Assembly (NCBI GenBank): GCA_964016885.1
Contig: OZ024740.1
Location: forward strand, 159,464,001 to 159,528,000
Source of the DNA: Eledone cirrhosa
Taxonomy: Eukaryota
Length of the DNA: 64,000 nt
Reading direction: 5' to 3'
In this document: one piece after another, positions 19,674 to 56,112 of the stretch
Numbering within the stretch: position 1 is the first letter of the stretch
How the letters are laid out: each line of letters starts with the position of its first letter
Notes under the pieces: model-generated
The model's input: only the letters and a program-made list of their open reading frames with translations
The model's database searches: none
Told to the model about the DNA's origin: nothing
Program-made: the position numbers and the translations under genes

Positions 19674-20758
19674 TATTGTTATACTTTGGGAGGGTCATGT
19701 TGCCAATAAGAAACACACGCACCAGTTGCTTTCACTTCAATTTATTATATATTTATAAATTTATAAATTTACAAATCTACAAACTTTTAAGTTTCTGGTT
19801 GGTTGGTTGGTTCCAGAACCAGATAGTTGTTTATATATAGTCATAGTCCTTTCGTCACTCACTCTGTGACCTGGGGATTCCTTTCTTTGTTTCTGTGCCT
19901 TTCCTTTCTTCTGTCCTACGCCATTTTGTTTCTGTGTGTGTGTTGTGTGCTCAGTTTGCGCATGCGCCACATCCGGGTGTCTGTGTGTGTTTGTGTTCAT
20001 TTATCTATTTGTTTATTTATTTATTTATTTATTGTTGGTTGGTTGTTTGTTCTATGTGTGTGTGTGTTTTCATTTTGTCCTTAATTGTAAGTTGTGATGT
20101 TGCTGTTCCACTCATTTTCTATTTAATTTTGGTTGTAATTCTTTTATGCTTACTGCCTCTGTAATTTGCCTAAACATTGCATCTTTTCTGTGTGTGGATT
20201 CTATTTTTATTTCTATGTTCTCTAATTTACCCTTGTGTTCTATCTTAGCATGTTGGTAGAGTACAGATGATTCTTTATTATCTTGAAGGTCTCGCCAGTG
20301 TTCATTTATCCGTTCCAAACAACCAACCAACAACATGTAAATAAATAAACAAATAGATAAATGAACACAAACACACACAGACACCCGGATGTGGCGCATG
20401 CGCAAACTGAGCACACAACACACACACAGAAACAAAATGGCGTAGGACAGAAGAAAGGAAAGGCACAGAAACAAAGAAAGGAATCCGCAGTCACTGATGA
20501 GGTCACAGAGTGTGTGACGAAAGGACTATGACTATATATAAACAACTATCTGGTTGTGGAAACAACCAACCAACCAGAAACTTATAAGTTTGTAGATTTG
20601 TAAATTTATAAATTTATAAATATATAATAAATTGAAGTGAAAGCAACTGGTGCGTGTGTTTCTTATTGGCAACATGACCCTCCCAAAGTATAACAATATC
20701 GGTTTCAACACACGATTTCAGATAAAGAATCTTGCTAAACAAATTCAGAAACGAAATA
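19674..20758. mobile_element. PLE family A two-armed insertion (GIY-YIG C-terminus + pLTR; inverted pLTR + 60-nt tail)
   Basis: The left arm (minus) carries ERINEHWRDLQ..LYQHAKIEH..QITEAVSIKELQPKLNRK. Junction at ~20316. TA flanks. Confidence 0.92.
20489..20533 (+). ncRNA. Minimal type I hammerhead, family A pLTR
   Basis: agtca-CTGATGA-g gtcaca gagtg tgtgac-GAAA-ggac-TA-tgact. Confidence 0.85.
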
Positions 20759-21564
20759 TATATATATATATATATATATATATATATATATATATATACA
20801 TATATACATATATACATATATATATATATACATATATACATATATACATATATATATATATATATATATATATATATGTATATATATATATATATATACA
20901 TATATATATATATACATATATATATATATATATATATATATATATATATATATATATATATATATATATATATATATATATATATATTGTTATACTTTGG
21001 GAGGGTCATGTTGCCAATAAGAAACACACGCACCAGTTGCTTTCACTTCAATTTATTATATATTTATAAATTTATAAATTTACAAATCTACAAACTTATA
21101 AATTTCTGGTTGGTTGGTTGGTTCCACAACCAGATAGTTGTTTATATATAGTCATAGTCCTTTCGTCACACACTCTGTGACCTCTTCATTGACTGGGGAT
21201 TCCTTTCTTTGTTTCTGTGCCTTTCCTTTCTTCTATCCTACGCCATTTTGTTTCTGTGTGTGTGTTGTGTGCTCAGTTTGCGCATGCGCCACATCCAGGT
21301 GTCTGTGTGTGTTTGTGTTCAATTATCTATTTGTTTATTTATTTATTTATTTATTTATTTATTGTTGGTTGGTTGTTTGTTCTATGTGTGTGTGTGTTTT
21401 CATTTTGTCCTGTGTGTGTTTTCATTTTGTCCTTAATTGTAAGTTGTGATGTTACTGTTCCACTCATATTTTCTATTTAATTTTGGTTGTAATTCTTTTA
21501 TGCTTACTGCCTCTGTAATTTGCCTAAACATTGCATCTTTTCTGTGTGTGGATTCTATTTTTAT

Positions 21565-24094
21565 TTATATGTTCTCTAATCTACCCCTGTGTTCTATCTT
21601 AGCATGTTGGTAGAGCACAGATGATTCTTTATTATCTTGAAGGTCTCGCCAGTGTTCATTTATTCGTTCCCCTATACTACGAGCTGTCTCACCTATGTAC
21701 ACTATATTTTTGTTTCTACATTGTCCTTCAGTACATCTTATGCTATACACTACATTTCTAGTTTTACAGTTAATATGGGGGCTTATTTTACAGGTTATAC
21801 ATTTCTTATCTATACATGAGGGTCTTTGGAACGGGTATGTCTTGCTAATAAGTGTTTTTACGGAGGTACCTGGTCTTTCTACTATCTTAATATTGAGTTT
21901 ATGTTTATTTAGGGCCCTTCTAAATTTGTAGGCTAGTTCGCCTCTAGGGGTTGTATTGATGAACATTACACTCTGGTATTTATTGCTATCATACCATGAG
22001 TTTATTCTATTGGCCTTGTTCCTAGTTCTTTCTATTCTATTCCAAAATTTGCTCCTATACAAGGGGCAGGTCCCATTTATGTCATTATTTACCATTTTTT
22101 CCCATTTGGTTGTGGCTCCTCTATACACTCTGATTCTATCTCTCTGATTGTAGCCAGAGAACTGCATACGGTGGATGAAGTGTTGTATGTGTCTCTCTAG
22201 TTCTTCGGGGTTGCACATGCGGGACACATTTCTCATCACCCGTACCAAATCCGCAATCAGTATGTTGATTTTGGTATGGTCCGAAATGGCCGAGTTTCGG
22301 TGGATCAGATGTTTGGAAGTCATGGGTTTGGCATAATGGGAATGGAGGATTTGTTTTTGGTTGTTAATGGTATCTAACCAGAGCTCTGTGTCTAGTACAG
22401 GTATTCGATGGTTGGGGTGTCTACTTGGGTAGTCTATAGTAACTCTAATGCTCTGGTGGATGGAGTTTGCTATTTGCTGGATGCTTTCCATTGTGTTTTT
22501 CTCTAGTTCCTGACTGTTCTTTAGTGGGGGTGTCTTAACTACGATGTTTATATCATCTACGTAGCGGGAGTACATTATCAGGGTTAAGCTGTCTTCTAAT
22601 TGTTCTTTAAGTTTTTGTTTAAGTCTACTGTCCCACCATACCATGAATAAGTTAGCTATGTCGCCTGCAATGCTAACACCAATGGCTGCTCCTTCCTCTT
22701 GGGCATATGTTTTACCATTAAATTTGAACATATGTTCCTTAAGGGTTAATTTTATGCTGGCCCCTACCGCATGTGCAATCATTTTCTTCAGTTCATCGTG
22801 GTTTTCGGGTGTCCGTATGGCTCTGGTCCACCCGTTCCATCTATCTGTGTGGGTTTTCTTGGCCATTGAGGTAATGGTAGGTGGTCTGCCTCTTGCTGAT
22901 CTTGTAGGGCACAGGTTGCTAAGGTCATAAGTGTCTAGGTAACTATTACTATGGGTAAGCTTAAGTAGAAGTCCCAGCTCACTGGTATCAATCCCACGGA
23001 ACTCAACCTTGCTCTCGCTGATCATTTCTACGCATTTCTCCACAGCAAAATCCACGTCAATAGATGGATACAGGGACACAACATCCATACTGCCTATTAT
23101 GCAGTTTCTTAGGTCCCCAGATCGGTTACTCGCGCCGATTCTGCTGAGGAGGTCCTCCGTGCTGTCACATATATCTGGGGACATCTCAATGATGGGGCGA
23201 ATGATCAGGGAGAGGAAGTAGGACAGTCTGTAGTTACTAGCAATGTTAGCCCCACAGACTGGCCGTGTTGGTGGTCCCGCGACAGGGTCACAGCCCGTTT
23301 TATGGTCTTTTCGAAGCCCATACAACGCCGGCACGTCATTGTTCCAGGCCTGGAAGTTGTTGGCAGTCCTTTTGTTGGGCTGCATTATATTCGTCCACAT
23401 CACCATATGGGCATTGAGGGCTTTTTCTCTATCCTCATGCTCCTGTGGTGTTACCTCTCTTGTGTTAGTGATGTGGGGTTGCATTGCCTGGATGTAGTTT
23501 GGCAGGCTGTCAACCGACATTCTGCCAGACTTGTTTGTTGGAAAGTATGCTATCTCTCCATTACGCGAGCGCTGCATGAGCTTACGCAAGCCATTTGCAG
23601 ATTTTTCTCCCAGTTGCTGGGCCTCTATTCTATTATGCTTCTTGCTATACTGTTCTATAATATTTCTAAGTTCGGATTCAGCTATACTAAATTGTGCTTC
23701 TGTTTGTTCATCGACCTGCGACGGCAACTGCGTGCGTTTGTTAAATGGTAAAGTCGTGGCGTGGACTCGTCGCAGGTCGAATGATTTATCGGAGGGATTA
23801 TAAAACGGAGAGTTCCAGGCTGCTGCTTTATGTGTACTAGTGTTATTGTTATTGTTAGTTGTGTTGTTTCTATTTCTATTTCCACCAACAGCCTCATGGT
23901 TGTTTCTATGTCTCTCATAATTACTCCTGTCTCTTTCCACTGGCTCAATGTTGTTATCTACCCTATTTTGTGTGTCTATGTGTTCGTCTTGGTTATTCTC
24001 TTTGTCCTTAGTCTCCCATCTCCTTTTCCTTTTAATCCTATTACTTTCCCTTATTTCTCTGATTTCTGTGCTACTGTCATTACTTGTTTTCTGT
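21565..24094 (-). pseudogene. PLE reverse transcriptase-GIY-YIG endonuclease ORF (5'-truncated, premature stop)
   Basis: LYGLRKDHK..TRPVCG, GSMDVVSLYPSI, QEEGAAIG, RYVDD, IPVLD and CKTRNVVYSIRC..YIGETARSIGERINEH. The TAA at 21565-21567 is GAA in the sibling copy (20211-20213). The first ~24 aa of the ORF-track call come from the inverted pLTR. Confidence 0.93.
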
Positions 24095-24187
24095 GCATGC
24101 GCAAACTGAGCACACAACACACACACAGAAACAAAATGGCGTAGGATAGAAGAAAGGAAAGGCACAGAAACAAAGAAAGGAATCCCC

Positions 24188-24232
24188 AGTCACTGAAGAG
24201 GTCACAGAGTGTGTGACGAAAGGACTATGACT
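24188..24232 (+). ncRNA. Minimal type I hammerhead, family A pLTR
   Basis: agtca-CTGAAGA-ggtcacagagtgtgtgac-GAAA-ggac-TA-tgact. Confidence 0.83.
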
Positions 24233-54970: not shown

Positions 54971-55195
54971 TGCAGTATGCCAATATGAGAAATTCTTAAT
55001 TTAACAAAAGTATATATATTGTTAAGTATCGAAATGTCATACTTCATTGAAATAACCAATATATGCATGATGAAGGACTTCGATACTTAATGCTTAAATT
55101 ATCAATATGCATTTAAAAAACGATATTTATTGCTCTTTTTCAACTTATTTAATATTAAGGAGTAATGTTTCATATATATATATATATATATATAT

Positions 55196-55518
55196 CATCA
55201 TCATCATCATTTTACGTCCACTTTTCCCTGCTTGCATGGGTGGGACGGGAACTGATTCTGACTTGATTTCTACAGCTGGATGCCCTTCCTAACACCAACC
55301 TCATTTACAGTGAGTGGTGGGTGATTTTTTGCCATGGAGCCTACACGTCCACTTTACAGTGGAATGATAGGGACCTCAGTTCCTATCATCTCATTTCTAC
55401 AGCTGAGTAAACTGGAGCAATGTGAAATAAAGTGTCTTGCTCAAGGAAACAACACATCATCCGGTCTGAGAATTGAACTCACAACCTTTCGATTGCAGGG
55501 CCAATGCTCTAACCACTA
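55196..55518 (-). mobile_element. tRNA-derived SINE with RTE-derived tail and (GAT)n end
   Basis: Head TAGTGGTTAGAGC..GAGTTCAATTC, CORE-like TCCTTGAGCAAGACACTTTA and an RTE-type tail. Confidence 0.87.
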
Positions 55519-55538
55519 TATATATATATATATATATA

Positions 55539-56112
55539 TATTGTTATACTTTGGGAGGGTCATGTTGCCAATAAGAAACACACGCACCAGTTGCTTTCAC
55601 TTCAATTTATTATAATAAATTTATAATAAATTTATAAATTTCTGATTGGTTGGTTGGTTCCACAACCAGATAGTTGTTTATATATTGTCATAGTTCTTTC
55701 GTCACACACTCTGTGACCTCTTCAGTGACTGGGGATTCCTTTCGTTGTTTCTGTGCCTCTCCTTTGTTCTGTCCACACACAGAAACAAAATGGCGTAGGA
55801 CAGAACAAAGGAGAGGCACAGAAACAAAGAAAGGAATCCCCAGTCACTGAAGAGGTCACAGAGTGTGTGACGAAAGAACTATGACAATATATAAACAACT
55901 ATCTGGTTGTGGAACCAACCAACCAACCAGAAATTTATAAATTTATAAATTTATTATAAATTTATTATAAATTTATTATAATAAATTGAAGTGAAAGCAA
56001 CTGGTGCGTGTGTTTCTTATTGGCAACATGACCCTCCCAAAGTATAACAATATCGGTTTCAACACACGATTTCAGATAAAGAATCTTGCTAAACAAATTC
56101 AGAAACGAAATA
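55539..56112. mobile_element. PLE family A non-coding two-armed insertion with one hammerhead per arm (55687-55729 minus; 55842-55885 plus)
   Basis: Arms join at ~55774. Both read gtca-CTGAAGA-ggtcacagagtgtgtgac-GAAA-gaac-TA-tgac. The right arm has the 60-nt tail. Confidence 0.92.

Follow-up and report, generated by a model that had tools for sequence, protein, structure and literature searches.

Two-armed insertions of a Penelope-like retrotransposon in the genome of Eledone cirrhosa follow a near-obligate rule, in which one arm ends at one fixed 3' site and the opposed arm ends at a second fixed site 60 nt farther on. We analyzed a window of 64,000 nucleotides (assembly GCA_964016885.1, contig OZ024740.1, positions 159,464,001 to 159,528,000 of the forward strand; coordinates below count from its first letter) that holds four insertions of this Penelope-like element (PLE), here called family A. 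We term the two ends S and L: the S arm ends in ..GTATAACAATA, and the L arm, which ends in ..AGAAACGAAATA, carries a further 60 nt referred to as the tail. A motif search and BLAST recovered all four insertions (A to D; Table 1) where the earlier note had placed them, each with two opposed arms whose outward ends run into (TA)n. The S ends lie at 19674, 20985, 33294, and 55539 and the L ends at 20758, 24460, 33122, and 56112, with TA-rich sequence beyond each, and the arrangement of one S and one L end was seen in four of four; in insertion B, the S-L spacing is 63 nt, owing to a 3-nt in-frame insert. At the inner junctions, the arms overlap by C at 20316 (A), AGT at 33232-33234 (C), and C at 55774 (D), as had been described, and also by G at 24095 (B). 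The diagnostic variants reported for A (GGACAG), B (GGATAG), and D (GAAAGAAC and GGAGAGG) are likewise common to both arms of each insertion. A and B are distinct insertions within a single interrupted (TA)n tract, and C is flanked by a 10-bp target duplication, its empty site being visible in neighboring minisatellite units.

The window lies on a contig that we label C1, in an assembly of ~3.0 Gb, and the first 37 Mb of that contig (C1 0-37 Mb) served as our main sample. When head-to-head neighbors no more than 4.5 kb apart were classified by coordinates alone, 40 were S/L, 2 L/L, and 1 S/S. Parsing the sequence around 190 listed ends (100 S and 90 L) gave 83 resolved two-armed insertions, which account for 126 of the ends: 79 were S/L, 2 L/L, and 2 S/S (95% heterotypic; confidence interval 88-99%), with one of the 79 possibly double-counted via a local duplication. 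Heterotypic pairing at this frequency is not a chance outcome because 50% would be expected (p = 2e-19). Genome-wide, matched gap patterns in a single length class returned 344 S/L loci as against 6 S/S and 3 L/L loci, and 3 of the 6 S/S loci belong to a sister family while 1 is composite. Homotypic pairs are thus rare, and the endpoints are sharp, not dispersed: partner ends, whose position played no part in their selection, fell exactly at L in 55 of 66 cases and exactly at S in 49 of 54. A hand tally of 30 loci recruited by pseudo-long terminal repeat (pLTR) sequence short of S yielded 19 S/L pairs (insertion B among them) and 1 L/L pair, the remainder being single or unresolved. The rule that one S end pairs with one L end is real, sharply defined, and general, and the element that obeys it is of a known kind.

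Target duplications flank the whole pair; informative ones were found in 12 of 127 S/L pairs versus 0.8 in shuffles, with a mode of 8 bp. Sharing of variants between arms, seen by the earlier note in three window insertions, extends beyond the window, with the arms of 103 pairs concordant at 593 of 600 polymorphic sites, where 58% was expected. Within subfamilies, arm agreement was 21/22 and 73/81 versus ~20% in 2,000 shuffles, and 21 private variants were present in both arms (0.2 expected). Such a picture might arise artificially from assembly chimeras, from two separate insertions that hit one microsatellite independently, or from preferential loss of symmetric pairs, and the junctions are indeed known from the assembly alone, palindromes being hard to assemble; the contigs and restriction-site-associated DNA reads listed at junction B included no bridging piece, and these runs may come from other individuals. 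We give this explanation almost no credence since no (TA)n lies between the arms, the duplications flank the pair, the junction position varies among copies, and the same rule is found in the unrelated families B and C described below. Moreover, S/S, L/L, and S/L pairs share the palindromic core, so that loss should not discriminate among the pair types.

We consider it likely that the two-armed insertions form when both cut ends of the target prime reverse transcriptase (RT) on the same RNA, using S for one end and L for the other, and the products are then joined. The element protein would cut both strands of the (TA)n target, staggered by ~8 bases, after which one 3' end would prime RT at S and the other 3' end at L on a single RNA. 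Two RT active sites, probably in a dimer, would hold one RNA at points 60 nt apart through protein-RNA binding and not base-pairing. Both enzymes would copy toward the RNA 5' end and stop independently, the L-primed enzyme would displace the S-primed complementary DNA (cDNA) in the overlap, and the two antiparallel cDNA ends would be joined by microhomology-mediated repair. A partial-tandem transcript has the S/L pair twice; its 5' pair would give rise to short pLTR-only palindromes running off the putative RNA start, and its 3' pair to arms that can exceed the length of one unit. Single-armed copies (about one third of ends, S equal to L) would result from failure of one primer or from loss of an arm.

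Two primings on one source RNA followed by end joining had been proposed in the earlier note, and this core is supported by the sharp ends, the rarity of homotypic pairs, and the shared variants, whereas two of its accompanying claims did not hold. One was that UA-ending template positions, pairing with the TA target, fix where synthesis starts. Ends are exact where the target matches the template at 0-1 nt only (insertion C and the loci L229, L382, and L403), so TA base-pairing is probably not what fixes the ends and is not required. This agrees with the homology-free initiation of PAc (Poseidon of Anolis) in vitro (PMC11167929; here and below, published work is cited from the portions of each source available to us). 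The other was that the open reading frame (ORF) lies on the tail-less arm. The ORF portion does sit on the S arm in insertions A and B, but not as a family rule: of the 79 S/L pairs, 15 have ORF sequence on the S arm alone, 7 on the L arm alone, and 9 on both, and the two intact full-length copies that we inspected (L256 and L260) end at L. The arrangement in the window therefore reflects sampling. The idea that L arms derive only from the 5' pLTR was ruled out because L arms extend into and beyond the ORF.

The 5' reach of the arms bears on whether one or two primings took place. The S arm was longer in 44 of the 79 pairs, the L arm in 25, and the two were equal in 10; arms overlapped in 65, and 14 L arms consisted of tail only, with no sequence in common with the S partner. 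That either arm can reach further argues against a single fold-back, in which priming at L alone would be followed by self-priming of the folded cDNA, endonuclease resolution at S, and later asymmetric loss of the hairpin center (ideas from PMC3846280 and PMC8557442). Fold-back would make variant sharing automatic and fits both the near-symmetric junctions in self-complementary tracts (13 of 79) and the snap-back segments observed elsewhere. Yet the S arm has sequence absent from the L arm in 44 pairs, and each such pair, like the 14 with tail-only L arms, would need a one-sided later deletion, even for insertions of 52 bp. Single-armed S copies are also as frequent as single-armed L copies (27 versus 25), private changes are mostly one-armed (178 versus 21), and initiation at the S site has been shown in vitro for PAc (PMC11167929). 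We accordingly regard fold-back as the main route of formation as quite unlikely.

The junctions themselves are compatible with joining of two cDNAs. Several of the near-symmetric ones fall in a self-complementary ATAAATTTAT tract. Annealing of two antiparallel cDNAs would be possible there, which offers an alternative reading of the junction palindromes that have been ascribed to self-priming (PMC3846280). To score microhomology, 48 young junctions were compared with four natural copies, leaving aside 7 that were near-symmetric, 14 that seemed to contain inserts, and 1 duplicate artefact. In the 26 asymmetric, insert-free junctions that remained, at least 2 nt of microhomology was present in 20, versus 16% by chance (p = 1e-11). 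Other junctions hold short fillers, some of which are snap-back copies of the cDNA end. Microhomology together with short fillers is typical of microhomology-mediated end joining. Among the 79 pairs, 12 L arms stopped within 30 nt and only 2 at 31-60 nt, the latter inside a predicted small hairpin of the tail. We also observed recurrent mini insertions of ~52 bp, composed of an S arm of 33-36 nt and an L arm of 17-22 nt (L049, L249, L289, L290, L293, L215, and L208:860-910), a class that could reflect either the footprint of a protein or aborted synthesis.

To place arm 5' ends on one scale, we used the coordinates of the intact copy L256, in which S is 4113, L is 4173, the ORF stops at 3665, and the ribozyme is predicted to cut after 3943. 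The 19 nt from 3835 to 3853 hold 29 of 222 arm 5' ends and the stretch 3854-3886 holds none, and inspection showed genuine truncation. An A(A/G)ATGGCG motif (AAAATGGCG), which we take to be YY1-like, follows this hotspot directly, and a GCGCATGCGC palindrome, presumably NRF1-like, precedes it by ~30 nt; from these sequence features we infer that the hotspot corresponds to a transcript start in the upstream pLTR. If both cDNAs were primed on the 5' S/L pair of a single RNA, neither could pass the hotspot. Among the C1 insertions, 0 of 18 with an arm ending in the hotspot had a partner arm beyond it, whereas 21 of 48 whose short arm ended elsewhere did (p = 0.0003), which favors a single RNA template.

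This result bears on dual priming from two RNAs, in which an asymmetric dimer would carry two transcripts, usually of the same locus, one subunit starting at S and the other at L. Provided that the protein binds RNA transcribed from its own locus, two templates would account equally well for the pairing, the target duplication, and the variant sharing; no cDNA displacement would be necessary, and the 7 of 600 discordant sites, as well as one pair whose arms belong to different subfamilies, would fit. However, two RNAs give no evident reason for both enzymes to use the same pLTR copy, as the absence of partners beyond the hotspot implies, and the strict S/L asymmetry would be without the simple reason that two sites on a single RNA provide. 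We view the two-RNA scheme as unlikely.

A circular RNA template, cut by the hammerhead and used from the same two start sites, would differ from priming on one linear RNA in the template only (PMC4209133). A hammerhead motif does lie 170 nt upstream of S, some arms exceed one unit in length, as in L296 (an 8.6-kb two-armed insertion whose L arm spans 1.7 units, 6.9 kb), and 6 of the 222 arm ends map to the predicted cut or just past it. Arms of this length imply that templates are tandem or circular. On a circle, though, the hotspot, ~100 nt upstream of the cut, would have no reason to exist, and tandem source loci account for the over-length arms: L252 (G000:C2:46786300-46796200) is a head-to-tail tandem array of full units and a candidate source locus. 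A truncation peak at the hammerhead cut was also sought and rejected, the 6 ends there being not clearly above their neighbors (15 in the 43 nt upstream and 7 in the 48 nt downstream). A circular template seems to us very improbable.

Several observations weigh against the proposal that both cut ends prime on one RNA, or limit how far it can be pressed. All the genomic evidence consists of traces left by past events. Of the 190 ends, 64 lie outside resolved pairs (27 S and 25 L without a partner, 12 unresolved), TA being present at the 5' side in 23 of the 52 partner-less ends, and two homotypic exceptions inspected by eye proved real, so genuine L/L and S/S pairs exist. Private variants were confined to one arm in 178 of 199 cases and shared in only 21, and an A-to-G excess, which could have tagged a single RNA molecule, was not found among the shared as compared with the one-armed variants (4/21 versus 15/178, p = 0.12). 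Variant sharing fits one RNA molecule, two RNAs of one locus, and later gene conversion, and cannot separate them. The short snap-back segments at some junctions indicate that cDNA fold-back does happen as a side step. The RNA start is read from the truncation hotspot and promoter-like motifs, and the hotspot could instead be an RT pause; a search for RNA records containing the element listed none; extra cap-derived G residues at hotspot ends were ambiguous, the base being available from the partner arm. When 34 non-random pairs were added, the partner passed the hotspot for 2 of 34 hotspot arms. For PAc, the start site was no different between the two strands (PMC11167929), which fits a symmetric target but does not show pairing per molecule. 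Taken together, a single RNA is favored over two RNAs of one locus, but this is not proven.

The same layout recurs in families other than A. Family B is an unrelated Hydra-type PLE with a 169-nt tail, which lies upstream of its probable start codon. The family B ORFs of the window (46807-49234) contain RVRWK, ADKT, and CNCHLPDRC, corresponding to the RWK, DKT, and CxCX5C linker of Hydra elements, and its insertions target (TA)n (definition in PMC8557442). With ~35 insertions examined, all 14 resolved pairs were S/L, and one duplicated locus ended at neither site. A simple pattern search found no CTGANGA core in 49600-50140 of family B. Family C is a third, older, hammerhead-bearing family with a tail of ~86 nt; its 30 loci comprised 12 S/L pairs, 1 L/L pair, 1 other, and 16 without a TA-bounded pair (i.e., 12 of 14). 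Given these families, we lean slightly toward the broader view that programmed twin priming is the normal PLE pathway, with one complex, a single RNA, two fixed starts, and a staggered double-strand cut, across clades with tails from 60 to 169 nt. If so, the tail would be the spacing between two active sites and the inverted pLTR the second cDNA, and PLEs would use an integration mode distinct from the long interspersed element (LINE) and long terminal repeat pathways. In the window, a short palindrome in (TA)n at 29710-29990, with ~40 nt extra on one arm and no evident hammerhead, is probably a fourth family with the S/L layout.

By its sequence motifs, family A is a PLE with a C-terminal endonuclease (EN+), of Neptune/Nematis type (definitions in PMC8557442). 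The unit of the intact copy L256 is 4,113 bp long and its ORF encodes 1,229 amino acids; for the intact copy L260, the corresponding figures are 4,088 bp and 1,232 amino acids. RT motifs SMDVVSLYP and YVDD and the endonuclease VYSI..YIGETAR are kept in homologues, and TDKSG is present. The GIY-YIG domain is C-terminal and of CCHH type, with VYSIRCTEGQC..YIGE (two cysteines between GIY and YIG) followed by conserved histidines. The linker CIDKKCITC (CX4CxxC), also kept in homologues, fits the CX2-5CxxC that precedes GIY-YIG in Neptune/Nematis and that is absent in Penelope/Poseidon and modified in Hydra (PMC8557442). Membership in Naiad/Chlamys, which have an N-terminal endonuclease and no canonical hammerhead, was ruled out, as family A carries its endonuclease at the C-terminus and does have a hammerhead motif. 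In Pfam, the window copy matched RVT_1 below threshold only, and the full-length protein had no match. The nearest named homologue among the matches listed was an Octopus vulgaris protein (70% identity); no named PLE reference was among the 121 homologues listed, and the clade is left as Neptune/Nematis-type. pLTRs from partial tandems, inverted 5'-truncated copies, and a tail are all found in family A. In partial tandems, the tail continues into the ORF, whose ATG lies 25 nt before S, so that the tail encodes codons 9-28. Both sites read AATA|TCG, and exact ends followed by TA number 13,593 for S and 12,293 for L genome-wide. The hammerhead motif, found by inspection and folding, has stem I AGTCA/TGACT, CTGAAGA, stem II, and GAAA, with a predicted cut after 24227; an Rfam scan gave no ribozyme match, only (TA)n-driven microRNA matches. 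Protein P0001 carries a long Asn/His/Thr-rich low-complexity insert upstream of RT (~residues 245-430, partly window 23850-24094), which recalls the N-rich inserts of Adineta PLEs (PMC3846280) and differs in position. The sister family (L311, L313, and L316) matches family A in the sequence of its S end and departs from it in the pLTR and at the beginning of the tail.

Table 1. Features of the PLE insertions in the window.
Feature	Coordinates	Strand	Basis
Insertion A, S arm: ORF 3' end and pLTR, S end into (TA)n	19674..20316	-	
Insertion A, L arm: pLTR and 60-nt tail, L end; one C common to S arm	20316..20758	+	
GCGCATGCGC palindrome, ~30 nt upstream of 5'-end hotspot	20394..20403	+	
Insertion B, S arm: 5'-truncated ORF and pLTR, S end	20985..24095	-	
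Insertion B, 5'-truncated RT and GIY-YIG ORF; in-frame stop 21565-21567	21433..24094	-	compared with intact copy
Insertion B, L arm: pLTR and tail	24095..24460	+	
AAAATGGCG motif directly downstream of 5'-end hotspot; putative RNA start 0-20 nt upstream of motif	24133..24141	+	
Insertion B, minimal type-I hammerhead motif	24188..24232	+	by inspection
ORF start codon (24373), S site (24397), tail = ORF codons 9-28	24373..24460	+	
Insertion C, target duplication, left copy, 10 bp, TTTATATATA (10-12 bp given TA register)	33112..33121	+	
Insertion C, L arm	33122..33234	-	
Insertion C, S arm; AGT common to L arm	33232..33294	+	
Insertion C, target duplication, right copy	33295..33304	+	
Insertion D, S arm	55539..55774	-	
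Insertion D, L arm; 5' end inside 5'-end hotspot	55774..56112	+	
Family B: unrelated Hydra-type PLE, S/L layout as family A, 169-nt tail	46194..50308	.	
Family C: third, older hammerhead-bearing family, same S/L layout, ~86-nt tail	17119..17962	.	

Much of this layout is already known. An inverted pLTR and duplications of 8-10 bp have been described for Adineta Pen2a_Av, together with a tail that one inverted pLTR may carry and that lengthens the encoded N-terminus; self-priming was the proposed explanation (PMC3846280). An overview of PLEs describes a tail often at one end only, likely from endonuclease resolution, and calls the formation of tandem and inverted insertions undefined (PMC8557442). 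Family A resembles these EN+ PLEs in its partial-tandem pLTRs, adjacent inverted 5'-truncated copy, and (TA)n bias, and in a one-end tail encoding the next N-terminal ORF residues and a target duplication of 8-10 bp (PMC3846280, PMC8557442). It differs from those descriptions in that pairing is counted here (95-97% heterotypic) and a single fold-back is disfavored, and in tail length, which is 60 nt in family A and 169 nt in the Hydra-type family versus 30-40 in described EN+ PLEs. In target-primed reverse transcription in vitro, PAc cut and extended both strands, with two RT starts inside the ORF 5' end that bound the tail; initiation needed no target homology, a dimer was predicted, and the hammerhead was not required (PMC11167929). 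Family A is alike in that its S and L sites lie in the ORF 5' end, and it would likewise use both strands, whereas for PAc the product strands were not linked, and inverted copies are not discussed in the available portions of that paper (PMC11167929); PAc also belongs to another clade, the CX4CxxC linker of family A being absent in Penelope/Poseidon. Hammerheads and circles in PLEs have been treated elsewhere (PMC4209133, bioRxiv 10.64898/2026.07.22.740005). Twin and dual priming are known for L1, where two nicks prime opposed cDNAs, as we propose here, with one target duplication and junction microhomology, as we observe here (PMC2837659). In L1, the second priming site is variable, internal, and chosen by annealing, and the cDNAs do not overlap and leave a deletion (PMC2837659); in family A, by contrast, neither site varies, the distance between them being 60 nt, the cDNAs overlap in 65 of 79 pairs, and two-armed products are the majority.

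Two points go beyond that literature: S/L pairing is obligate, and, when read as programmed twin priming, it can be used to account for the inversion; our search found no paper stating either for PLEs, most subscription papers lying outside that search. The element itself is an ordinary PLE, and the contribution is a quantified, testable model of integration. The rule of one S plus one L joins the inverted pLTR, the one-sided tail, and the two in vitro starts on both strands into one mechanism, which is directly testable in the existing purified-protein system. It would also account for the thousands of short palindromes with hammerheads that occur in animal genomes and are mistakable for miniature inverted-repeat transposable elements, and it would give annotators a boundary rule for PLEs.

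The window holds further repeats. A 410-bp direct repeat (18590-18999 and 19269-19676) ends at the (TA)n tract that hosts insertion A. More short inverted repeats occur at 2334-2460, with a hammerhead-like core, and at 59165-59540. Fragments at 6068-7656 and 57404-58978 belong to two LINE-type RT ORFs, which we take, from their motifs, to be CR1/L2-like and RTE-like. Long, degenerate microsatellite arrays at or near insertions (the flank at 46194-46245, 50310-51400, 8519-12341, and 32408-34057) resemble large inverted repeats and are mostly self-complementary simple repeats.

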